Shown here in pieces: positions 473 to 46,037 of a stretch of 64,000 nucleotides of DNA. Origin of the DNA: Escherichia phage vB_EcoM_G2540; the sequence record MK327936.1; one strand, given 5' to 3'. The position numbers were made by a program, and so were the translations under genes. Numbering within the stretch: the stretch's first letter is position 1; each line of letters starts with the position of its first letter. The notes beneath the pieces are model-generated. The model did not search any database. It was given only the letters and a program-made list of their open reading frames with translations, and was not told where the DNA came from.

Positions 473-862
473 TTAACGATTAAAATCAGCCGCAATTGTT
501 TCCGCAACAATTTGAGCAGCAACAATTAGACGTTCATCTGCATTACCGCAATAATCATCTTCAAGACGTTCACCACATGAAGTCATAATAAATTTAGCAC
601 CGGCGTTTAGGGATTCTGTAGTATGTTTGCGCATTAGTTCAATCCATTTATTACTTACTTCACGATCGATAGCTTCATAATACGCATGACGAGCAGGTGC
701 AGATTTAATTTTGTTCTGAATAACTTCCATTGCGTTATCAGAAAGAGACAAAACCCATGCTCGACGAATTTTATTTTGGTTTTGTGGATTTGATTCAGAA
801 CGCACGTGTTTTGGCTGAATATCTTTTACATCAACAGTATAATTCACAGTAATTTTAGTCAT
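473..862 (-). CDS. rpbA: RNA polymerase-binding protein RpbA (by position and 129-aa length)
   Basis: ORF track 129 aa; lies between gene 45 and gene 46 as in T4. Confidence 0.55.
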
Positions 863-1114: not shown

Positions 1115-1831
1115 ATGAATTATAAACTAATTTATGAAAAGTTAATCTCTAATGCTAAATCTCGAAAACTTGATTGTTATACTGAATCTCATCACATTAT
1201 ACCACGCTGTTTAAATGGCAGCGATGATGCTTCAAACTTAGTAGATTTAACACCAGAAGAGCACTATGTAGCTCATCAACTTTTAGTAAAAATTTATCCT
1301 TCTGAACCAAAATTAGTCTATGCTGCTAACATGATGACAGTTTCTACGAAATACGCTAAACGCAACAATAAAACTTTCGGTTGGATTCGTCGTAAACTCT
1401 GGGAAATAGAAAAGAATAAAGAATTCTCCCAGGAGACACGAAAGAAAATGTCTGATGCAGTAGCTAATAAAGCAAGACTAACTTGTCCTCATTGCGGTAA
1501 GTCTGGATTAAGCGGGAATATGAATCGTTGGCATTTTGATAACTGCCCAAATCACCCTAATCCTAAAGTTAGACCACCAATGTCTAAAGAACACAGAAAT
1601 AATATCTCAAACGGGCTTAAAGCAATCGTTCTTGAAGAAACATCCTGCGAATTCTGCGGAATGATAGGCAAGAAATGCGTTATCGCAGCGCATAGAAATT
1701 TCTGCAAGAAAAATCCAAATGGACGCAAGAAAACTGAAAAGACTGGTACTTGCGTCCATTGTGGTAAAGTTACCACTTTCGGAAATTTATCAAGATGGCA
1801 TAATGATAACTGTAAATATAAACTTAGCTAA
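1115..1831 (+). CDS. Free-standing HNH-family homing endonuclease with repeated Cys-rich zinc-finger motifs
   Basis: 238-aa ORF on strand opposite to neighbours; ESHHIIPR...EEHYVAH HNH-like core; three CxxCG...H..NC repeats; TATAAATA late promoter 34 nt upstream. Confidence 0.7.
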   Translation: MNYKLIYEKLISNAKSRKLDCYTESHHIIPRCLNGSDDASNLVDLTPEEHYVAHQLLVKIYPSEPKLVYAANMMTVSTKYAKRNNKTFGWIRRKLWEIEKNKEFSQETRKKMSDAVANKARLTCPHCGKSGLSGNMNRWHFDNCPNHPNPKVRPPMSKEHRNNISNGLKAIVLEETSCEFCGMIGKKCVIAAHRNFCKKNPNGRKKTEKTGTCVHCGKVTTFGNLSRWHNDNCKYKLS

Positions 1832-3512
1832 TCTTAGCTAAACTAAATCTACCAACTTTTTCCATCTGAATATGCTGACCATATTCTTGTGGGTCATGGT
1901 CTTTATGTGAAATTATGAAGAAGTTGGTATCCTTCAAACCATCTAAAATTTTAGCTACATTTTTAATACCTTCAGCATCAAATGCACCGTCATACACTTC
2001 ATCAAGAAATAAACAACTTATTTTAACACCTGAAACTTTTTCAGCAATATCACGCCAAGTAAATAAAAGAGCAATATCAATTCGTGCTTTTTCACCTTGA
2101 CTGAATGAAGCATAACTAAAATCTTCACGACCACGGGATTTAATTGTCTCATTAAATTCTTCATCTAATGTAAACACATAATCCGCTTCCATTATTTTAA
2201 GATAATGGTTAATCTGCTTATTAAATAATGGAATGTACTTTTTAATAATAGCACCTTTAATACCAGAATCTTTGAGCATATCAGTCAAAATTCCTCGGTG
2301 GTATTTTTCCATTACTAAATTAGTTTTTGTCTTAACAATTTTATCAAGTTCTTCTTGAAGCAGTGCTATTTCATCAGCATGGTCAATAAACTCAGAAGAT
2401 GCTTTTTCTATAGCCGCTTTAACTTTTTTAGCTTTATCTACCGTCGTGATTAGAGATTGCTTTTTATTGCGAATATCATTTGCCAGCGACTGCTGGGTTT
2501 TAATATTATCTCGGTATTCATCAACAAGAACTTTTAAATTATCACGATGTGTTGAAAGCTGTTCAAACGAATGCGTGCATTCAGAAACTTTATCTTTAAT
2601 TTTAGAAACAACTTTATCACCGGAACTTAATTGTGACAAACAGGTTGGACATAATCCACCTTCGTGATACATATTAATGACTTTATTATATGAGTCAATT
2701 TTTGATTTAATTAAAACTGCTTCTTGACCGATTTTATTAAATGCATCAGTCGGGTCTTCATCCAAAACAATATTAACTAATCTTTCATTAGCTTCTTCTA
2801 TTTCCGATTTTAGCGTTCTAGCTTCTTTTGCCAAATCATCGTACATATTTTGCAGACGAGTAAGGTTGTCACCCGTTAATTTTTTCTGGCGTTCAACGTT
2901 ATCATTATATATTTTAATTTGTTGGATAATACTATCTTTTTTAACATCAAGCACTTGGTTCTGCGAATTTAATTCACGTATTAGTGCTTTATTAAGCTTA
3001 TCCATTTCAGCTAATGTTCCTACCTCGAGCAGGTCTTCCACAAGCTTTCTTCGCGCAGGGGTCGACAAACCCATGAAAGGGGTATACCCTGCTGTACCAA
3101 GGACAACAATCTGCTTGAAACTGGCATATGACATTCCGATAAGCTGTTCAAATTCTGCTTGGAAATCTTTACTGCTGGCAGATTCATTAAGACGTGTACC
3201 GTTAACGGTGATTTCGAAAACGTTTGGTTTTTGTCCTCTTTTGATATAGTACTTTTTCTCATCATATTCCATCCACAGTTCAACTAAAAGTTCTTTCTTA
3301 TTTGTGCTGTTTATTAATTGACCTTTCTTTACATCACGGAATGGCTTGCCAAAAAGCCCAAATGTGATGGCTTCTAACATAGTAGACTTACCACCGCCAT
3401 TTCGTCCAGTAATAAGAGTTTTTTGAACCTTATCTAATTGAATGTCAATAGGATTTCCACCTACTGACATTATATTTTGATACCTAACTCGGTTTAGTTT
3501 AAAATTCTTCAC
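1824..3512 (-). CDS. 46: Recombination endonuclease subunit gp46 (Rad50/SbcC-like ATPase)
   Basis: 562 aa; Walker A GRNGGGKST near N-terminus; long coiled-coil middle; size and position match T4 gp46. Confidence 0.9.
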   Translation of the reverse strand: MKNFKLNRVRYQNIMSVGGNPIDIQLDKVQKTLITGRNGGGKSTMLEAITFGLFGKPFRDVKKGQLINSTNKKELLVELWMEYDEKKYYIKRGQKPNVFEITVNGTRLNESASSKDFQAEFEQLIGMSYASFKQIVVLGTAGYTPFMGLSTPARRKLVEDLLEVGTLAEMDKLNKALIRELNSQNQVLDVKKDSIIQQIKIYNDNVERQKKLTGDNLTRLQNMYDDLAKEARTLKSEIEEANERLVNIVLDEDPTDAFNKIGQEAVLIKSKIDSYNKVINMYHEGGLCPTCLSQLSSGDKVVSKIKDKVSECTHSFEQLSTHRDNLKVLVDEYRDNIKTQQSLANDIRNKKQSLITTVDKAKKVKAAIEKASSEFIDHADEIALLQEELDKIVKTKTNLVMEKYHRGILTDMLKDSGIKGAIIKKYIPLFNKQINHYLKIMEADYVFTLDEEFNETIKSRGREDFSYASFSQGEKARIDIALLFTWRDIAEKVSGVKISCLFLDEVYDGAFDAEGIKNVAKILDGLKDTNFFIISHKDHDPQEYGQHIQMEKVGRFSLAKIS

Positions 3513-3772
3513 AAAAGATTCCTTTTAATGTATCTTTTAGACCATTCTATCATATCATCATAATCTAAAAAGTATTCATCAAATTCAGCCATGCAAACAA
3601 CACCTTGTGCTGCTTTTGATGTGATATAAATTATTCCAACATATCTAGAATCTTCTTCGGTATAATCAATATTTGCTATGAATTCATCATTAATGTCAAA
3701 TGTCGAAAACTTCACAGTATGCATCCTTAATACAAGATACAGCCATATCTTGTAATGATTTAGGTGTGTCAT
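3509..3772 (-). CDS. Hypothetical protein (46.1 position; true start may be internal)
   Basis: ORF track; overlaps upstream ORF by 77 nt so annotated start is uncertain. Confidence 0.35.
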   Translation of the reverse strand: MTHLNHYKIWLYLVLRMHTVKFSTFDINDEFIANIDYTEEDSRYVGIIYITSKAAQGVVCMAEFDEYFLDYDDMIEWSKRYIKRNLL

Positions 3773-3959
3773 TATCTAAAATGTTGAAGTTAAAAGATAC
3801 AGCCCAGTCAGTGCAGACCGTAACCTTTTTAATACAATTATCTTCAACCTCTAACGGTTCAAACCAATATTCAATAATTTCTTTATGACCAATATCATCT
3901 TTTACTTCGCATTCAAAATGCTGACTCATCATAACATTTTTAAATTCATCAAAAGTCAT
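3696..3959 (-). CDS. Hypothetical protein (46.2 position)
   Basis: 87-aa ORF between genes 47 and 46. Confidence 0.4.
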   Translation of the reverse strand: MTFDEFKNVMMSQHFECEVKDDIGHKEIIEYWFEPLEVEDNCIKKVTVCTDWAVSFNFNILDNDTPKSLQDMAVSCIKDAYCEVFDI

Positions 3960-4975
3960 TGTGTTGCCTCTACATATAACTGATTTGCATATTGAATAAG
4001 TGCTTCACGGTCAGAATCAGTGATGTCTGGAATTGCATTAATGTATTCTTCCATCAACGTCTGAAGAGATTGAACTTCAACTTCTTCACTTTCATCTGAC
4101 TCGACAGAGTTATCAATCTTTGACACAACTCGTAATGAATGCACAACTTTTTCTAGTTCAGATTCGAACTTCGTTAGATTTTTGTCTACTTCAGTTACTA
4201 TAACACGTACTGATAGATTTGTAAAATCTTTATAGTCAATTTTTCCTTTAAATGGATAATGAATTCTGCGATGCCAAGTAGTGTTGTTTGGAATAAATTC
4301 CATTCGTTCTGTTTCTGTATCAAACATCCAGAACCCGCGAGGGTCATTCTCGTCACCTGCAGTTAGTGTCCATGGTGTCCCAATATATCTGACATTTGCA
4401 GCCTCAGAGATAGTATGGAAGTGACCAGACCACACTTCTTTATAAGTCTTAAGGAAATCAGGTTCAAGACCGTGAGATTTCATTCCTTTATAAAAATAAA
4501 ATCCATTCAGTTCCCAGTGACCAACACAAAAAGAAGCAGATGAAGTTTTGATGTGTTCAAGAATTTCACCAGTATTTTCTTCGCACATCCAAGGAATCAA
4601 ATCAATCAAACATCCGTCAAAATCTACTGTAGTAGGCTTATCATATACTTTAACATTAGGATATTTAGCCAAAAGCTCAGTAGAGGCATTTGGATGCATT
4701 ACATTTTTGTAGTGGAGATCGTGATTTCCTACAATAGTATGTAATGTGATTCCAGCGTCATCAAGCATTTGAACTATTTCACGGGCAAACTCCATAGTTT
4801 TATGCGTGATTGCTTTTCGCACATCAAAAATATCACCATATTGAATCCATACAGTAATTCCATTTTTCTTAGAATATTCTATCGCTTGCTTAATTCCATC
4901 AATTTGAATACCGCGAATCCACTCATCATCAGCTTTAACGCCTAAATGCCAATCACCCAAGTTTAGTATTTTCAT
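3956..4975 (-). CDS. 47: Recombination nuclease subunit gp47 (Mre11/SbcD-like phosphoesterase)
   Basis: 339 aa; calcineurin-like motifs GDWHLG, GDIFD, GNHD; size matches T4 gp47. Confidence 0.9.
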   Translation of the reverse strand: MKILNLGDWHLGVKADDEWIRGIQIDGIKQAIEYSKKNGITVWIQYGDIFDVRKAITHKTMEFAREIVQMLDDAGITLHTIVGNHDLHYKNVMHPNASTELLAKYPNVKVYDKPTTVDFDGCLIDLIPWMCEENTGEILEHIKTSSASFCVGHWELNGFYFYKGMKSHGLEPDFLKTYKEVWSGHFHTISEAANVRYIGTPWTLTAGDENDPRGFWMFDTETERMEFIPNNTTWHRRIHYPFKGKIDYKDFTNLSVRVIVTEVDKNLTKFESELEKVVHSLRVVSKIDNSVESDESEEVEVQSLQTLMEEYINAIPDITDSDREALIQYANQLYVEATQ

Positions 4976-10681: not shown

Positions 10682-10964
10682 GAGAAATAATTCCTTGGTA
10701 AGCCCAATAAGGAGGATTAACAGAATCCTCACCAGAGTTTTCTTCAGGAAAATAAACCTGGATAACGAAGCCGGATTCATCAAAGGTAAAATAAACCGTA
10801 GGCAGTTCACCTAACAAATCGGCACGAGCGTTGATTTCGTCGAGGTCTTGTTCACGTCCAGCCCAGAAGCTTGGGTTCAGACTACATTCATAGAAATAAT
10901 AGTCATTACCGAACATATCAAAACCATTCCAACTCTCTACTACATACCGCTCAAAACTAATCAT
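10653..10964 (-). CDS. Hypothetical protein
   Basis: 103-aa ORF. Confidence 0.4.
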   Translation of the reverse strand: MISFERYVVESWNGFDMFGNDYYFYECSLNPSFWAGREQDLDEINARADLLGELPTVYFTFDESGFVIQVYFPEENSGEDSVNPPYWAYQGIISRGTKLELKE

Positions 10965-10966
10965 AA

Positions 10967-11182
10967 TTAATCCTTTTTATCAAGAACCGCATTCAGCTTG
11001 TTAGTAATTTTATCCAGACGCTCATTGAACTCACTAGAAGATAAGCCCTTTTCTGGAGAAATTAAACTAATCACGAAAAATACAACAATAAAAGGAATAA
11101 GAAAAATAGCTCCAACCGCCATAAACAGAAAGAACGTTACAGTTGTAAGAAAATCAGCTAAACCTTTACGAAATTTATACAT
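10967..11182 (-). CDS. Small membrane protein
   Basis: 71 aa with a long hydrophobic stretch FLTTVTFFLFMAVGAIFLIPFIVVFFVISLI. Confidence 0.4.
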   Translation of the reverse strand: MYKFRKGLADFLTTVTFFLFMAVGAIFLIPFIVVFFVISLISPEKGLSSSEFNERLDKITNKLNAVLDKKD

Positions 11183-11297
11183 ATTTTACCCTTAATTGAT
11201 TAACCAAGCATTGATAAGCACTAAACTATATTGCGAATAAAATTCTGGACCAAAATGAAAAATCATATCATTTATAGTGTCCATAATATAATTCAAT

Positions 11298-11768
11298 TTA
11301 ATCATGTTTCCACACCCCATCGGTATTTGACCAAAGTCGCTGATTATCTGATCCTCGCCACAGCTTTTTAGTCGGAAGATTTTTCTCATACTTCCCATCA
11401 ATAATAACATCAACATATTTAAGCATTTCTAGTTGTTTAATATCTTCAAACTTATATCCTGTCCACAACCAAATGCTTTTATTGGGATAAAGATTTTTTA
11501 CTGTTTGAACCACAGAGTGAATCACGTCTCTGTTATCAGGATAAAGAGGGTCACCTCCGGTTATAGTTAATCCTTCTATATAATCATTATTCAAACATTC
11601 AATTAATTGTTCTAGTGTTTCACCAGTGAATGGAATACCATTTCTAGCATTCCATGTTGATTTATTATAACACCCTTCGCATTTATGCAAACAACCTGTA
11701 ACGAAAAGAACGACCCTGCATCCAGGGCCATTCACAAAATCGCAAGGATAAAATCTATCATAATTCAT
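11298..11768 (-). CDS. nrdG: Anaerobic ribonucleotide reductase activating protein (radical SAM)
   Basis: 156 aa; Cys cluster CLHKCEGCYN; adjacent to nrdD; size matches T4 NrdG. Confidence 0.9.
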   Translation of the reverse strand: MNYDRFYPCDFVNGPGCRVVLFVTGCLHKCEGCYNKSTWNARNGIPFTGETLEQLIECLNNDYIEGLTITGGDPLYPDNRDVIHSVVQTVKNLYPNKSIWLWTGYKFEDIKQLEMLKYVDVIIDGKYEKNLPTKKLWRGSDNQRLWSNTDGVWKHD

Positions 11769-13582
11769 TGGTGTTTAACCCTATGCATGATTTCTTTATT
11801 TTTACCGAGATTAAATCCGCGTTCGTTCGGATTTCCCAAATAACCACATGTTCTTCTTATTGTGTTCATCTTTTTAGGATCAGTTTCTCCACAAATAGAA
11901 CAAACAAATCCGTTTTCAGTAGGAGTCATTTCATGGGTACTTCCACATGTAAAACATTTATCTACTGGCATATTAACACCAAAATAATCTAAATGTTGTG
12001 CAGCATAATCCCATACGGCCTCAAGGCCTTTCAAGTTATTTTTCATATCAGGAAGTTCAACATAAGAAATGTGACCACCTGTCGCAATGAAATGATATGG
12101 CGCTTCACGAGAAATCTTTTCAAACGGAGTAATATTTTCTTCTACTGAAACGTGGAAACTGTTAGTGTACCAGCCTTTATCGGTAACATCTTTTACACTT
12201 CCATATTTTTCTGTATCAAGTTTACAGAAGCGATAACAAAGGTTTTCAGCAGGAGTAGAATACAAACTAAAAGCAAACTCAGTTCTTTCAGTCCACTGTT
12301 TAAGACGAGCATTCATTTTAGTTAAAATTTCTCGTCCAATATCACGACCGACAAGAATATTCAATTCGTGAATACCAATGTATCCTAGAGACACTGAACT
12401 TCTACCATTTTTAAATAACTCAATTATATCGTCATCAGGTTTAAGACGAACCCCGAATGCACCTTCTTGGTAAAGAATAGGAGCAACAGTCGCTTTAACT
12501 CCTTTTAAGGAACTAATTCTACACATCAATGCTTCAAAACATAAATCCATTCGTTCATTGAACAATTCAACAAATTTCTGTTCATTGAATTGTGTTCCAA
12601 TATAAGAATCTAACGCGATACGAGGAAGATTCAGTGTTACAACACCGAGATTATTACGTCCATCAAGAATTTCATTACCAGTCGAATCTTTCCATACGCT
12701 CAAGAAACTACGGCAACCCATTGGAGAAACAGGAATAGATGAGCCGGTGATAGCTTTATTGTTCTTAGCTGAAATAATATCAGGATACATTCTTTTGCTT
12801 GCGCACTCTAGAGCAAGCTGTTTAATATCATAGTTCGGATCGTCTTTATAAAGATTAACACCTTCTTCAACAAACATAACAAGCTTAGGGAAAATAGGAG
12901 TTATCCCATCACGACCAAGACCTTTAATACGATTTTTCAGAATTGCTTTCTGAATCATTCGTTCAGTCCAGTCAGTTCCTGTACCAAATGTAATTGTTAC
13001 AAAAGGTGTTTGTCCGTTTGAACTAAAGAGAGTATTTACTTCATATTCATAAGCTTGGAATGCATCGTATACATCTTTTTCTGTTTTAGATTGAGCATAA
13101 TTCAACGCATCAGCGATTTGCCATTTTTCTGCATCCTCAATATGTTTTGCATAGGTGCGTTTAACATAAGGAGAAAGTACTTTATCTACATTAGCAAAAG
13201 TCGTTCCGCCGTATTGATGGGAAGCAACCTGTGCAGTAATTTGTGCCATAATTGCAGTAGCAACACCGATTGATTTAGGAGTTTCAATCTGTGCATTACC
13301 AAGCTTAAATCCATTCTCAAGCATTCCTTTTAAATCTACTAAACAACAATTAGTAAATGGAAGAGCAGGGGAATAATCAATATCGTGGAAATGAATAATT
13401 CCGCTTTCATGCGCTTTCATAATAAAAGACGGGACCATATTTTTGGCAATGTGTTTAGACACAATACCAGCCATAAGGTCCCGTTGAGTTGGAAAAACAC
13501 GAGAATCTTTATTAGCATTCTCGTTTAAAAGGTCTTTATTAGTTTTATGAATCAATCCTTCAATTTCTTTTTCAATTGTCAT
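11765..13582 (-). CDS. nrdD: Anaerobic ribonucleoside-triphosphate reductase, uninterrupted (no intron)
   Basis: Continuous 605-aa ORF; C-terminal glycyl-radical region RRTCGYLG and Cys cluster CFTCGS...CSICG. Confidence 0.9.
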   Translation of the reverse strand: MTIEKEIEGLIHKTNKDLLNENANKDSRVFPTQRDLMAGIVSKHIAKNMVPSFIMKAHESGIIHFHDIDYSPALPFTNCCLVDLKGMLENGFKLGNAQIETPKSIGVATAIMAQITAQVASHQYGGTTFANVDKVLSPYVKRTYAKHIEDAEKWQIADALNYAQSKTEKDVYDAFQAYEYEVNTLFSSNGQTPFVTITFGTGTDWTERMIQKAILKNRIKGLGRDGITPIFPKLVMFVEEGVNLYKDDPNYDIKQLALECASKRMYPDIISAKNNKAITGSSIPVSPMGCRSFLSVWKDSTGNEILDGRNNLGVVTLNLPRIALDSYIGTQFNEQKFVELFNERMDLCFEALMCRISSLKGVKATVAPILYQEGAFGVRLKPDDDIIELFKNGRSSVSLGYIGIHELNILVGRDIGREILTKMNARLKQWTERTEFAFSLYSTPAENLCYRFCKLDTEKYGSVKDVTDKGWYTNSFHVSVEENITPFEKISREAPYHFIATGGHISYVELPDMKNNLKGLEAVWDYAAQHLDYFGVNMPVDKCFTCGSTHEMTPTENGFVCSICGETDPKKMNTIRRTCGYLGNPNERGFNLGKNKEIMHRVKHQ

Positions 13583-14052
13583 TTTAAACTCTTTCTAAGC
13601 TGCTTCTTAAATGAAGCTATTAATTGTGTTTTGGTGTCAGATTCATTATATTCAAATCCTCTTTGAAGCATCTCGGCCATCATTTCCTCTTTTCCTAAAC
13701 GAGAAAATTCCTTTGATTTATCTCCAACGAAGTTAGGGTGAATATTATTTTGGGTGTAATCGGATTTTAAATAAGTAAGTAAATTTTCTAACCATTCAAG
13801 ATAATCAACGCCTTGTCCCTTTAAACCAGAGCGATTAAATTTATGTTTCATTTGACCTTCTGCAGCATTGCAGAGATTACAAAGCAATCCACGTACCTTT
13901 CCTGCTTTTGGTCCATTTAATTCATGGTCATGATCGAGGTGATTAGCTTGAACATCAGGATTTAGTTCTCGTTGGCAAATTAAGCATTTACCGTTTTGTG
14001 CATCATAAAATTTCTGTTTTTCTTCTTTATATAATTTGCCAGTCAATAACAT
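13579..14052 (-). CDS. 49: Endonuclease VII (Holliday junction resolvase)
   Basis: 157 aa; CLICQRELNPD...HLDHDHEL zinc/HNH-like motif; size matches T4 gp49. Confidence 0.9.
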   Translation of the reverse strand: MLLTGKLYKEEKQKFYDAQNGKCLICQRELNPDVQANHLDHDHELNGPKAGKVRGLLCNLCNAAEGQMKHKFNRSGLKGQGVDYLEWLENLLTYLKSDYTQNNIHPNFVGDKSKEFSRLGKEEMMAEMLQRGFEYNESDTKTQLIASFKKQLRKSLK

Positions 14053-14094
14053 AATAAAACCCTTACCTTAAATAGATAAGGGTATTTATTATTT

Positions 14095-14598
14095 TCAAGT
14101 ATTGTAAAACATTTGATGCAATCGCTTATATTGCCGAATCATTTGGTCAGAAAAAGAAATTTGAGTTTCAAGCCATTCAATGTATTCTGCGGCAGCTTGC
14201 ATCAGGTTACCTTCATAGCCATCGTTATTTTCTTGTGCAGCTAATTTAGCTAATGCGTATGAAATACGTTCACCTTGAAAATCGGCTTTAGGCTTCTGAA
14301 CAACTTGATTAGTTCGCTCTACAACTTCTTCAATTTCGCCATTTTCGACTGATTCAGTATTCCACAAACACCAATACGTAATTGGCTTATCGTAGATGTT
14401 AATAATCTTTCCATCAGAAAGTTCAATTTCAATAATTCCAGTATCAGGTTCTATATCATCTTCACATTCTTTTGCAAGTTCACGAACTTTAAAGACAGTA
14501 CCTGCACTAAGTTCCGGCCAGTAATTACACAGCCCTGTATCAGCACGATTAATTCTAAACCACTTATCTACTGTAATCATGTCCCATCTCCATATCAA
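14095..14598 (-). CDS. Hypothetical protein (position of T4 pin; identity not confirmed)
   Basis: 167-aa ORF next to gene 49. Confidence 0.3.
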   Translation of the reverse strand: MIWRWDMITVDKWFRINRADTGLCNYWPELSAGTVFKVRELAKECEDDIEPDTGIIEIELSDGKIINIYDKPITYWCLWNTESVENGEIEEVVERTNQVVQKPKADFQGERISYALAKLAAQENNDGYEGNLMQAAAEYIEWLETQISFSDQMIRQYKRLHQMFYNT

Positions 14599-37043: not shown

Positions 37044-37119
37044 TGGTCGAGGCAGTAGGGATCGAACCTACGACCCAGGACTTAGAAGGTCCTTGCTCTT
37101 CCTTCTGAGCTATGCCCCG
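37044..37119 (-). tRNA. tRNA-Arg (anticodon TCT), CCA encoded
   Basis: Manual fold: acceptor CGGGGCA/TGCCTCG, D-arm GCTC..GAGC, anticodon loop CTTCTAA, T-arm GTAGG-TTCGATC-CCTAC. Confidence 0.75.
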
Positions 37120-37122
37120 TAA

Positions 37123-37788
37123 TTAAAATTTCATTTTTCGACCTTTAAACCATCCTTCTGGAATTGGGTCAGTTTTCTTAATAAGTTTAGAAACTTTTTC
37201 ATCTAATGAATGAATCCACATCATACCAAATTGGGAATTCTTTTCGCCTTGTTGGTGTTTATTTCTGGCGTGAGATTCTTTCATTTTATTAATAGTTTCA
37301 AGAGTATGGGTCTTACCCAAGAAAGATTTAGTATTTAAAAATTTCTCTCTATACTTAGGATTATCCCAAAGCTGTTTAAACCTTTCTGAACCCATTTTAC
37401 GATATTTTTCTTTAAGGTCTGGGTCGTTCTCAAATCTGGTTTTAAAAGCGGCAGCTCCTTTTAAGGAAGCTTCTTTCTTTTTATCCAAATATTCTTTAGT
37501 GTTTAAATGGTCCCAACCACCTTCACCACCTAATTTCAAATTATAAACATCAGGGCGCTTTAAAAACTCTTCAGTCACAATATTCTTTTCTGACTCAAAC
37601 ATAGAGGTTTTATCGTCAAAGAACTCTAATATTTCTTTAGAAAAATTTTCTATACCATACTTATCTTGGGCTCTTTTTAATAATTTACCAGAACCCATAT
37701 ATCCATCATCTAAATTTTCGGTAGAATGCACACCAATATAAATTTTATTATTAATTTTATTTGTTATTTTATAAGTGTAATGGAACAT
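37123..37788 (-). CDS. segB: GIY-YIG homing endonuclease SegB
   Basis: 221 aa; YTYKITNKINNKIYIGVHS GIY-YIG motif; embedded in tRNA cluster as in T4. Confidence 0.8.
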   Translation of the reverse strand: MFHYTYKITNKINNKIYIGVHSTENLDDGYMGSGKLLKRAQDKYGIENFSKEILEFFDDKTSMFESEKNIVTEEFLKRPDVYNLKLGGEGGWDHLNTKEYLDKKKEASLKGAAAFKTRFENDPDLKEKYRKMGSERFKQLWDNPKYREKFLNTKSFLGKTHTLETINKMKESHARNKHQQGEKNSQFGMMWIHSLDEKVSKLIKKTDPIPEGWFKGRKMKF

Positions 37789-37829
37789 AAATATCTCCTA
37801 TTTCTAAGAGTATTTATGTTCCCAAAATA

Positions 37830-37901
37830 TGGCCCTGGGTGGAATTGAACCACCATCTGGCGATTATGAGTCGCTTGCTTGAACCTTCCAGCTACAGGGC
37901 C
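37830..37901 (-). tRNA. tRNA with CAT anticodon (T4 tRNA-Ile-type; Ile via lysidine, or Met)
   Basis: Manual fold: acceptor GGCCCTG/CAGGGCC, anticodon loop CTCATAA, T-arm GGTGG-TTCAATT-CCACC. Confidence 0.75.
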
Positions 37902-37907
37902 TTGATA

Positions 37908-37980
37908 TGCTGATTGACGGAATCGAACCGCCGACATCCTCATTACAAGTGAGTTGCTCTACCTACTGAGCTAAATCAGC
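37908..37980 (-). tRNA. tRNA-Thr (TGT)
   Basis: Manual fold: acceptor GCTGATT/AATCAGC, D-arm GCTC-AGTAGGTA-GAGC, anticodon loop CTTGTAA, T-arm GGCGG-TTCGATT-CCGTC. Confidence 0.8.
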
Positions 37981-37987
37981 GAAATTA

Positions 37988-38074
37988 CGGAGGCGATAGG
38001 ATTTGAACCTATGAGTCGCCGGAGCGACTGCCGGTTTTCAAGACCGGTGCATTAAACCACTCTGCCACGCCTCC
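37988..38074 (-). tRNA. tRNA-Ser (TGA), long variable arm
   Basis: Manual fold: acceptor GGAGGCG/CGCCTCC, anticodon loop CTTGAAA, long variable arm, T-arm ATAGG-TTCAAAT-CCTAT. Confidence 0.8.
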
Positions 38075-38076
38075 AG

Positions 38077-38150
38077 TCTCCATACAAGGATTTGAACCTT
38101 GGACCTCCTGATCCCAAATCAGGCGCTCTACCAAACTGAGCTACACGGAG
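38077..38150 (-). tRNA. tRNA-Pro (TGG)
   Basis: Manual fold: D-arm GCTC-AGTTTGGTA-GAGC, anticodon stem CCTGA/TCAGG loop TTTGGGA, T-arm CAAGG-TTCAAAT-CCTTG. Confidence 0.8.
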
Positions 38151-38162
38151 TAAATTAAATTT

Positions 38163-38234
<72 letters not shown>

Positions 38235-38240
38235 AAACTT

Positions 38241-38327
38241 TGGTACGAGAAGTGGGACTCGAACCCACAAGGAAATCATTCCGCAGCATTTTAAGTGCTG
38301 TGCCTTTACCAATTTGACCATTCTCGC
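38241..38327 (-). tRNA. tRNA-Leu (TAA), long variable arm, CCA encoded
   Basis: Manual fold: acceptor GCGAGAA/TTCTCGT, anticodon stem CAGCA/TGCTG loop CTTAAAA, T-arm GTGGG-TTCGAGT-CCCAC. Confidence 0.8.
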
Positions 38328-38328
38328 G

Positions 38329-38401
38329 CTGGGAATAAAGGACTCGAACCTTTGCATCTAGCAGTCAAAGTGCTATGCCTTACCAACTTGGCTAATTCCC
38401 A
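38329..38401 (-). tRNA. tRNA-Gln (TTG)
   Basis: Manual fold: acceptor TGGGAAT/ATTCCCA, anticodon stem TAGCA/TGCTA loop CTTTGAC, T-arm AAAGG-TTCGAGT-CCTTT. Confidence 0.8.
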
Positions 38402-44326: not shown

Positions 44327-46037
44327 TAACCTTAATTGGTTTGTTGGTGTTGTTGAAGATAGAATGGACCCATTAAAATTAGGTCGTGTTCGTGTTCGTG
44401 TGGTTGGTCTGCATCCACCTCAAAGAGCACAAGGTGATGTAATGGGTATTCCAACTGAAAAATTACCATGGATGTCAGTTATTCAACCTATAACTTCTGC
44501 AGCAATGTCAGGAATTGGAGGTTCTGTTACTGGACCGGTAGAAGGAACTAGAGTTTATGGTCATTTTTTAGACAAATGGAAAACTAACGGAATTGTCCTT
44601 GGCACGTATGGTGGAATAGTTCGCGAAAAACCGAATAGACTTGAAGGATTTTCTGACCCAACTGGGCAATATCCTAGACGTTTAGGAAATGATACTAACG
44701 TATTAAACCAAGGCGGAGAAGTAGGATATGATTCGTCTTCTAATATTATCCAAGATAGTAATCTAGACACTGCAATAAATCCCGATGATAGACCACTATC
44801 AGAAATTCCAACTGATGATAATCCAAATATGTCAATGGCTGAAATGCTTCGCCGTGATGAAGGATTAAGACTAAAAGTTTATTGGGATACCGAAGGATAT
44901 CCGACAATTGGTATTGGTCATCTTATCATGAAGCAGCCAGTTCGTGATATGGCTCAAATTAATAAAGTTTTATCAAAACAAGTTGGTCGTGAAATTACAG
45001 GAAATCCAGGTTCTATTACAATGGAAGAAGCGACAGCTTTATTTGAGCGTGATTTGGCTGATATGCAACGTGACATTAAATCACATTCTAAAGTAGGACC
45101 AGTCTGGCAAGCTGTCAACCGTTCTCGTCAAATGGCATTAGAAAATATGGCATTTCAAATGGGTGTTGGCGGTGTAGCTAAATTTAACACTATGTTAACT
45201 GCTATGTTAGCAGGAGATTGGGAAAAAGCATATAAAGCCGGTCGTGATTCATTGTGGTATCAACAAACAAAAGGCCGTGCATCCCGTGTTACTATGATTA
45301 TTCTTACGGGGAATTTGGAATCATATGGTGTTGAAGTGAAAACCCCAGCTAGGTCTCTATCAGCAATGGCTGCTACTGTAGCTAAATCTTCTGACCCTGC
45401 TGACCCTCCTATTCCAAATGACTCGAGAATTTTATTCAAAGAACCAGTTTCTTCATATAAAGGTGAATATCCATATGTTCACACAATGGAAACTGAAAGC
45501 GGACATATTCAGGAATTTGATGATACCCCTGGGCAAGAACGATACAGATTAGTTCATCCAACTGGAACTTACGAAGAAGTATCACCGTCAGGAAGAAGAA
45601 CAAGAAAAACTGTTGATAATTTGTATGATATAACCAACGCTGATGGTAATTTTTTGGTAGCCGGTGATAAAAAGACTAACGTCGGTGGATCAGAAATTTA
45701 TTACAACATGGATAATCGTCTTCACCAGATAGATGGAAGCAATACAATATTTGTGCGTGGCGATGAAACTAAGACAGTTGAAGGTAATGGAACTATCTTA
45801 GTCAAAGGTAATGTTACTATTGTAGTTGAAGGTAATGCTGACATTACAGTTAAAGGAGATGCTACCAATTTAGTTGAAGGAAATCAAACTAACACAGTAA
45901 ATGGAAATCTTTCTTGGAAAGTTGCTGGGACAGTTGATTGGGACGTTGGTGGTGATTGGACAGAAAAAATGGCATCTATGAGTTCTATTTCATCTGGTCA
46001 ATACACAATTGATGGATCGAGGATTGACATTGGCTAA
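44310..46037 (+). CDS. 5: Baseplate hub/central spike with tail lysozyme domain gp5
   Basis: 575 aa; MEMISNNLNWFVGVVED N-terminus, lysozyme domain MLRRDEGLRLKVYWDTEGYPTIGIGHL, C-terminal VxGxxxxV beta-helix repeats. Confidence 0.95.
   Translation: MEMISNNLNWFVGVVEDRMDPLKLGRVRVRVVGLHPPQRAQGDVMGIPTEKLPWMSVIQPITSAAMSGIGGSVTGPVEGTRVYGHFLDKWKTNGIVLGTYGGIVREKPNRLEGFSDPTGQYPRRLGNDTNVLNQGGEVGYDSSSNIIQDSNLDTAINPDDRPLSEIPTDDNPNMSMAEMLRRDEGLRLKVYWDTEGYPTIGIGHLIMKQPVRDMAQINKVLSKQVGREITGNPGSITMEEATALFERDLADMQRDIKSHSKVGPVWQAVNRSRQMALENMAFQMGVGGVAKFNTMLTAMLAGDWEKAYKAGRDSLWYQQTKGRASRVTMIILTGNLESYGVEVKTPARSLSAMAATVAKSSDPADPPIPNDSRILFKEPVSSYKGEYPYVHTMETESGHIQEFDDTPGQERYRLVHPTGTYEEVSPSGRRTRKTVDNLYDITNADGNFLVAGDKKTNVGGSEIYYNMDNRLHQIDGSNTIFVRGDETKTVEGNGTILVKGNVTIVVEGNADITVKGDATNLVEGNQTNTVNGNLSWKVAGTVDWDVGGDWTEKMASMSSISSGQYTIDGSRIDIG

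Follow-up and report, generated by a model that had tools for sequence, protein, structure and literature searches.

The uninterrupted nrdD gene of Escherichia phage vB_EcoM_G2540 and its empty group I intron insertion site

Is an uninterrupted nrdD gene in a T4-like phage a departure that calls for explanation, or is it the usual state of this gene? The question is raised by Escherichia phage vB_EcoM_G2540 (MK327936.1), of which a 64,000-nt stretch, referred to below as the window, was analyzed. The original prediction described the anaerobic ribonucleotide reductase gene of this phage as an intronless allele, empty and potentially susceptible to homing, and set it against that of T4, which carries a group I intron with the I-TevII endonuclease gene. 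The description of T4 agrees with its reference record (NC_000866), in which the nrdD coding sequence is given in two pieces, and the difference in intron content between the two phages is real. The implied contrast is not a notable one, however, since the intronless state is the rule among relatives (~90%). The reading favored here, with a probability of about 0.9, is that nrdD of vB_EcoM_G2540 is an ordinary wild-type Tequatrovirus allele that was never interrupted, as is normal for these relatives.

The variable occurrence of T4 introns has been recognized since 1987-89 (reviewed in PMC2988022) and is also documented in PMC2993671, and a close relative, UFV13, has been reported to be without I-TevI, -II and -III (PMC5931544). 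Intronless nrdD and the patchy distribution of T4 introns are thus already known, and the finding is in itself of little weight, as T4-like phages have the gene without an intron by default and patchy introns are textbook matter. The by-products of the analysis are descriptive: the empty site and its haplotype were mapped, the T4-type target was found almost only together with the intron (with Salmonella phage SG1 as the exception), and a second, commoner intron lineage was found to use the same nrdD site. These observations are relevant to the population dynamics of homing endonucleases and reveal nothing special about vB_EcoM_G2540.

The nrdD gene, its product and its neighbors

The open reading frame of nrdD starts with ATG and runs without interruption to its stop codon (Table 1). 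An ORF of 605 codons in DNA of 35% G+C lies far beyond chance expectation, and base composition is uniform along the gene. Searches against Pfam identified an NRDD domain covering residues 21-604 (PF13597, profile positions 1-562, 4e-171, 570.8 bits) and a Gly_radical domain at residues 481-586 (PF01228, 1e-25, 90.5 bits), and residues 1-605 of the predicted protein match residues 1-605 of the crystallized T4 NrdD (1H78, 1HK8 and related entries). Residues C79, C290, N311, C543, C546, C561, C564 and G580 are all retained at their T4 positions. In the T4 enzyme these are the radical glycine (G580), residues of the active site (C290, C79 and N311) and the four cysteines of a zinc site. One continuous 605-residue ORF with an intact glycyl-radical region and C-terminal cysteine cluster had been predicted, and both parts of this description hold. 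Every sequence criterion that was applied, namely domain content, key residues and an adjoining nrdG gene, places the protein in the NrdD family, and judged in this way it is apparently a functional enzyme. Full-length NrdD would be activated by NrdG to yield a glycyl-radical enzyme that converts NTPs to dNTPs under anaerobiosis. Many Tequatrovirus genomes match the nrdD region at 98-99% identity, Shigella phage ESh31 being the best of them (99.1%).

Table 1. Coordinates of the nrdD locus in the window and of the second intron in its reference phages
Feature	Position	Strand	Basis
nrdG, radical-SAM activase	11298..11768	-	Pfam: Fer4_12 (7e-49) and Radical_SAM
nrdD, class III (anaerobic) ribonucleotide reductase catalytic subunit, uninterrupted CDS, 605 aa	11765..13582	-	ORF list, Pfam, T4 alignment, PDB match
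Gly580 codon, glycyl-radical residue, motif RRTCGYLG	11843..11845	-	
C-terminal zinc-binding cysteine cluster of NrdD (C543, C546, C561, C564)	11891..11956	-	
Equivalent of the 30-bp I-TevII target, -10 to +20	13025..13054	-	T4 alignment
Empty intron insertion site, within codon Tyr180 (13045, last exon-1 base, T; 13044, first exon-2 base, A)	13044..13045	-	T4 alignment
Gene 49, endonuclease VII	13579..14052	-	Pfam
Second intron, phage JM10 locus	3041-4085		
Second intron, phage HY03 (Tequatrovirus) locus	about 1956-3000		

The nrdD gene is tightly packed between gene 49 and nrdG. Its ATG overlaps the stop codon of gene 49 (ATGA at 13582..13579), and its own stop codon is overlapped by the ATG of nrdG (ATGA at 11768..11765); because stop and start codons overlap in this way, the arrangement suggests that gene 49, nrdD and nrdG are translationally coupled. 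In related phages three optional positions at this locus can hold mobile elements, namely the nrdD intron site, the slot between gene 49 and nrdD, and the slot between nrdD and nrdG. All three are empty in vB_EcoM_G2540. The slot between nrdD and nrdG is occupied by mobC in T4 and PST, by segH in T6, and by homing endonuclease genes that are unnamed or carry other annotations in EC128, RPN226, RB3, fPS-2 and HY03. In fPS-2, G8 and Manna the slot between gene 49 and nrdD is filled by a homing endonuclease gene. In most phages with a filled slot, T4 and PST not among them, the adjoining end of nrdD is divergent over its first ~60-220 nt or its last 64 nt.

Two other regions of the window resemble homing endonuclease genes. 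A 238-aa ORF on the plus strand (1115-1831) lies opposite in orientation to both flanking ORFs (473..862 and 1824..3512, minus strand) and shares 37% identity with the N-terminal 136 residues of T4 MobC (tblastn, 8e-20), a similarity that makes it a likely free-standing HNH homing endonuclease gene. On the minus strand, positions 37480-37740 resemble the N-terminal part of homing endonucleases at 46-50% identity, with matches to T6 segH, an EC128 endonuclease and an RB3 protein annotated as 'segD'. The tRNA genes at 37119 and 37830 flank this stretch, which has the position of segB in T4, within a minus-strand cluster of eight tRNA genes (37047-38401; Rfam, 57-70 bits). Its presence means that vB_EcoM_G2540 is not free of homing endonuclease genes.

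The empty insertion site and the introns that occupy it elsewhere

Alignment of the nrdD coding sequence with the spliced T4 coding sequence (NC_000866) revealed two sequences of 1818 nt that are colinear, with no indel, and differ at 64 nucleotides (96.5% identity). The proteins differ by four conservative changes (V65F, V283I, H426R and G435E). The T4 intron is 1,033 nt in length (44815..45847 of the record), carries I-TevII and separates exons of 538 and 1280 nt; its boundaries were set by the group I rules, with U as the last base of exon 1 and G as the last base of the intron, which gives a sensible translation. BLAST alignment of the window with T4 breaks cleanly at a single point, across which the exon 1/exon 2 junction of vB_EcoM_G2540 is uninterrupted. 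The 1,033-nt intron is precisely absent, with no residue left behind. The alignment to the T4 exons placed the insertion site between 13045 and 13044 and revealed no missing exon segment, and the predicted intronless state is borne out by this colinearity and by the lack of any Rfam or BLAST trace of an intron.

The Rfam result requires some care in its reading. No group I intron was matched in the whole 64-kb window or in a permissive scan of positions 10800-14400, and in positive controls the T4 and JM10 introns were recognized as Intron_gpI at 105 and 70.9 bits, respectively. However, in a joint scan of two loci, gathering mode with default filters failed to report the JM10 intron, which was recovered in E-value mode on 1.2 kb, at a score above the 50-bit gathering score. 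A negative scan in gathering mode is by itself no proof that an intron is absent, so the call for nrdD rests mainly on colinearity. BLAST and tblastn searches with both intron types described below and with their endonucleases likewise returned no match within the 64-kb window.

The frequency of introns at this site was estimated from close relatives. A 601-nt probe centered on the junction matched 682 records at ≥90% identity and gave split matches with 74 records. The latter number agrees with the ~71 intron carriers identified among these ~682 relatives (about 10%) and establishes the intronless gene as the norm. The T4-type intron with I-TevII was found in 25 phage records (~3.5%), many of which are T4 itself or laboratory derivatives; the carriers comprise T4 and its derivatives, RB55, RB59, PST, Manna, G8, RPN226, fPS-2, U5 and EC128. 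A second intron lineage occupies the same site in 44 records, with two further records in which the endonuclease appears to be deleted. At the level of the junction itself, a 90-nt probe of the window type matched 521 records at ≥95% identity, and the corresponding probe from the spliced T4 junction matched no intronless record above 94.4% identity. Environmental sequences gave a similar picture. Exact empty-site matches in IMG/VR numbered six for the window type and none for the T4 type, and a degenerate pattern that allowed either haplotype recovered eight metagenome loci, all of the window type. Altogether, 11 of 14 environmental empty sites carry the exact window haplotype and the other three differ from it by one base.

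The second lineage, represented by the introns of phages HY03 and JM10, consists of 1,045-nt introns that are assigned to group I by Rfam, are ~70% identical to the T4 intron and encode a GIY-YIG endonuclease 56% identical to I-TevII. These introns are commoner than those of the T4 type (44 versus 25 records) and are linked to their own exon flank, with G at -11, -8 and -2, A at +14 and T at +17. Both types insert at the equivalent of 13045/13044, which for the HY03/JM10 type reads GAGT/ATGAAG (with the slash marking the insertion point). The nrdD junction of vB_EcoM_G2540, at codon 180, is an empty site for two related elements, each composed of a group I intron and a GIY-YIG endonuclease gene.

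Several records depart from these two intron types and from the plain empty site. PP328843.1 (215Ecol030PP) and OR757453.1 (BYEP01) contain 46% and 34% of the second intron, respectively, in two pieces inside nrdD, and appear to be intron copies from which the endonuclease gene was deleted. Salmonella phage SG1 (locus about 2520-2565) was the only intronless phage found with intron-linked junction bases; its junction combines an exon-1 side of the HY03 type (-11G, -8G, -2G) with an exon-2 side of the T4 type (+8 to +20), and SG1 may either have lost an intron precisely or preserve the original empty site as a relic. Approximately 300 short, high-identity partial matches to the second intron were set aside as irrelevant to the window, as they correspond to a 42-nt segment of the intron core that the td intron has as well. 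This segment (JM10 locus 3070-3111, intron positions 30-71) is 97.6-100% identical in roughly 300 T4-like genomes and lies in td where annotated, for example in RB9.

The junction haplotype and its origin

The I-TevII recognition sequence, on whose integrity the original prediction had also touched, is not intact in its T4-defined form. The equivalent 30-bp target reads GCTTATGAAT on the exon-1 side and ATGAAGTAAATACTCTCTTT on the exon-2 side of the insertion point in vB_EcoM_G2540, and GCTTATGAGT and ATGAAGTGAACACGTTATTC in T4. The two are identical at 23 of 30 positions and differ at -2, +8, +11, +14, +15, +17 and +20. All seven differences are synonymous and leave the peptide AYEYEVNTLF unchanged, yet together they form the densest cluster of differences from T4 in nrdD, where ~1 per 30 nt would be expected. 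The catalogued 30-mer site of I-TevII is equal to the T4 spliced junction, as the alignment confirmed. A full-text literature search for the I-TevII target sequence returned no match. Bell-Pedersen et al. (1990) and Loizos et al. (1996) reportedly placed the cut 13-15 nt downstream of where the intron inserts, and with that cleavage position the differences at +14 and +15 would sit at the cut.

Base-level comparison revealed that these differences follow the intron. T2, T6, RB3, RB32 and SP18 share the exact seven-site haplotype of the window, VR25 shares six of the seven sites, and all eight T4-type carriers are identical to T4 from at least -28 to +28. In an allele-separation panel of 14 phages (seven T4-type carriers and seven non-carriers), the only sites among all 1818 at which carriers and non-carriers have no allele in common were -2, +8, +14, +15, +17 and +20. 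The introns of the carriers are 99.2-100% identical, whereas their exons are only 90.8-98.1% identical to those of T4 and are often closest to those of intronless phages (PST to T2, EC128 to T6). In each carrier the T4-like tract reaches 29-155 nt leftward and 29-35 nt rightward from the point of insertion. Near-identical introns combined with such short T4-like flanks are, as read from the alignments, the signature of recent horizontal intron spread with co-conversion. Homing accompanied by co-converted flanks has been described for the introns of T-even phages (PMC2988022).

Two processes would together explain why T4-type junction bases travel only with the intron, the need for P1 pairing and co-conversion. 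The first would account for position -2, where helix P1 would require a G opposite a C of the intron internal guide sequence. UAUGAGU of the exon forms base pairs with GCUCAUG of the intron, and the two intron lineages have an identical guide as well as G at -2. Replacement of this residue by A abolished the P1 hairpin in the predicted fold, with z-scores that were weak, as is expected for 8-bp helices; because they are weak, the proposed pairing requirement behind the linkage of G(-2) is drawn from standard group I architecture. Co-conversion would account for the remaining positions, since +8 to +15 fall within the stretch from insertion site to cut, with +17 and +20 just past the cut, where donor bases would be copied into the recipient at each homing event. 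We infer a co-conversion origin for the junction tract on these grounds, although short tracts of this kind could be mimicked by ordinary recombination in the vicinity of the intron. The pattern is best explained by P1 pairing and co-conversion, neither of which involves anything particular to vB_EcoM_G2540. Its polarity is suggested by outgroup phages (Moonvirus and phages of Klebsiella, Enterobacter and Citrobacter), in which position -2 is A and positions +11 and +14 are mostly T. With these bases in the outgroups, the window-type junction looks ancestral and the T4-type junction imported.

The same cluster of differences could instead reflect escape from homing. In this alternative, the junction haplotype of nearly all wild intronless T-even phages is a synonymous-site 'immunity' allele, refractory to cleavage or poorly cut by I-TevII, whose silent changes were selected to block homing, and the intron is rare for that reason. 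The clustering of seven synonymous differences around the reported cleavage position is what such selection might leave, and the sole characterized substrate of I-TevII differs from the wild target at these seven of 30 positions, including the two at the reported cut. The T4-type intron reaches a frequency of only about 3.5%, and natural examples of a T4-type empty site are almost lacking, represented by SG1 alone in the phage collection and by none of the 14 environmental sites. Were this correct, the laboratory homing site, composed of intron-deleted T4 exons, would be an artificial substrate with hardly any natural counterpart, and the rarity of the intron would reflect escape by the host gene rather than slow spread. 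However, one and the same haplotype runs through Tequatrovirus and Gaprivervirus, and the bases A(-2), T(+11) and T(+14) shared with more distant outgroups make it look ancestral rather than like a derived escape. Near-identical introns in backgrounds nearest to intronless phages, as in the pairs PST/T2 and EC128/T6, moreover point to recent entry into alleles of this kind.

What is known of I-TevII specificity also argues against an immune allele. The recognition site is long, degenerate and bound through the minor groove (PMC2988022), and the enzyme reportedly cleaves a pseudo-site consisting of the fused intron sequences that flank its own ORF (reviewed in PMC3984707). When reconstructed, this pseudo-site was identical to the target at only 17 of 30 positions; the match is good from -7 to +10 and poor around the cut, and the base at -2 is A. 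T2, which has the same junction haplotype as the window, is said to have been the recipient in the classical homing crosses with the nrdD (sunY) intron. An immunity allele is therefore considered unlikely. I-TevII can probably still cut the window-type allele at some efficiency, and the predicted susceptibility of this allele to homing is plausible from the sequences compared here. Recipients of recent natural transfers would have been mostly of the window type, because almost no other empty allele exists.

Precise deletion of an intron once present in this allele is a much less probable origin of the empty site. Such loss is part of the accepted life cycle of homing endonucleases (PMC2988022), and SG1 demonstrates that an intronless allele with intron-linked flanking bases exists. 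Precise loss would leave those bases behind, but unlike SG1 the window has none of them (G at -2 and G, C, G, T, A and C at the differing positions from +8 to +20), and it contains no intron remnant; this explanation is rejected. The least probable reading, that the ORF hides an unrecognized insertion, a missing exon segment or a pseudogene, is excluded by colinearity with a T4 coding sequence of the same spliced length and by the full-length match to the T4 structure, in keeping with the few conservative substitutions, the uniform composition and the lack of any RNA family match along nrdD. A never-interrupted allele of the common Tequatrovirus type remains the favored reading; no observation spoke against it, and susceptibility to homing is its weak point.

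Comparison with nrdD loci of known phages

The closest counterparts of this allele are the intronless nrdD (sunY) genes of T2, T6, RB3, RB32, RB51 and UFV13, each of which is an 1818-nt coding sequence with the same junction as the window from -2 to +20. Over the 90-nt junction probe, RB51 and RB68 are 100% identical to the window. T2 and RB32 resemble the window in a direct overlap of nrdG with nrdD, whereas T6 and RB3 have an endonuclease gene between nrdD and nrdG that is lacking in the window. Outside the junction tract, T2 nrdD differs from that of the window at 50 positions, which are scattered SNPs.

T4 nrdD (NC_000866 43535..46385), with its group IA intron, shares with the window the gene order 49-nrdD-nrdG and exons that are 96.5% identical. 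It is unlike the window in its 1,033-nt intron, in the seven synonymous differences at the junction, and in the presence of mobC, an HNH endonuclease gene, between nrdD and nrdG. Introns of the HY03/JM10 type share the insertion point, and the window constitutes an empty allele for this type as well; its junction differs from the flanks of these introns at -11, -8, -2, +14, +17 and +20.
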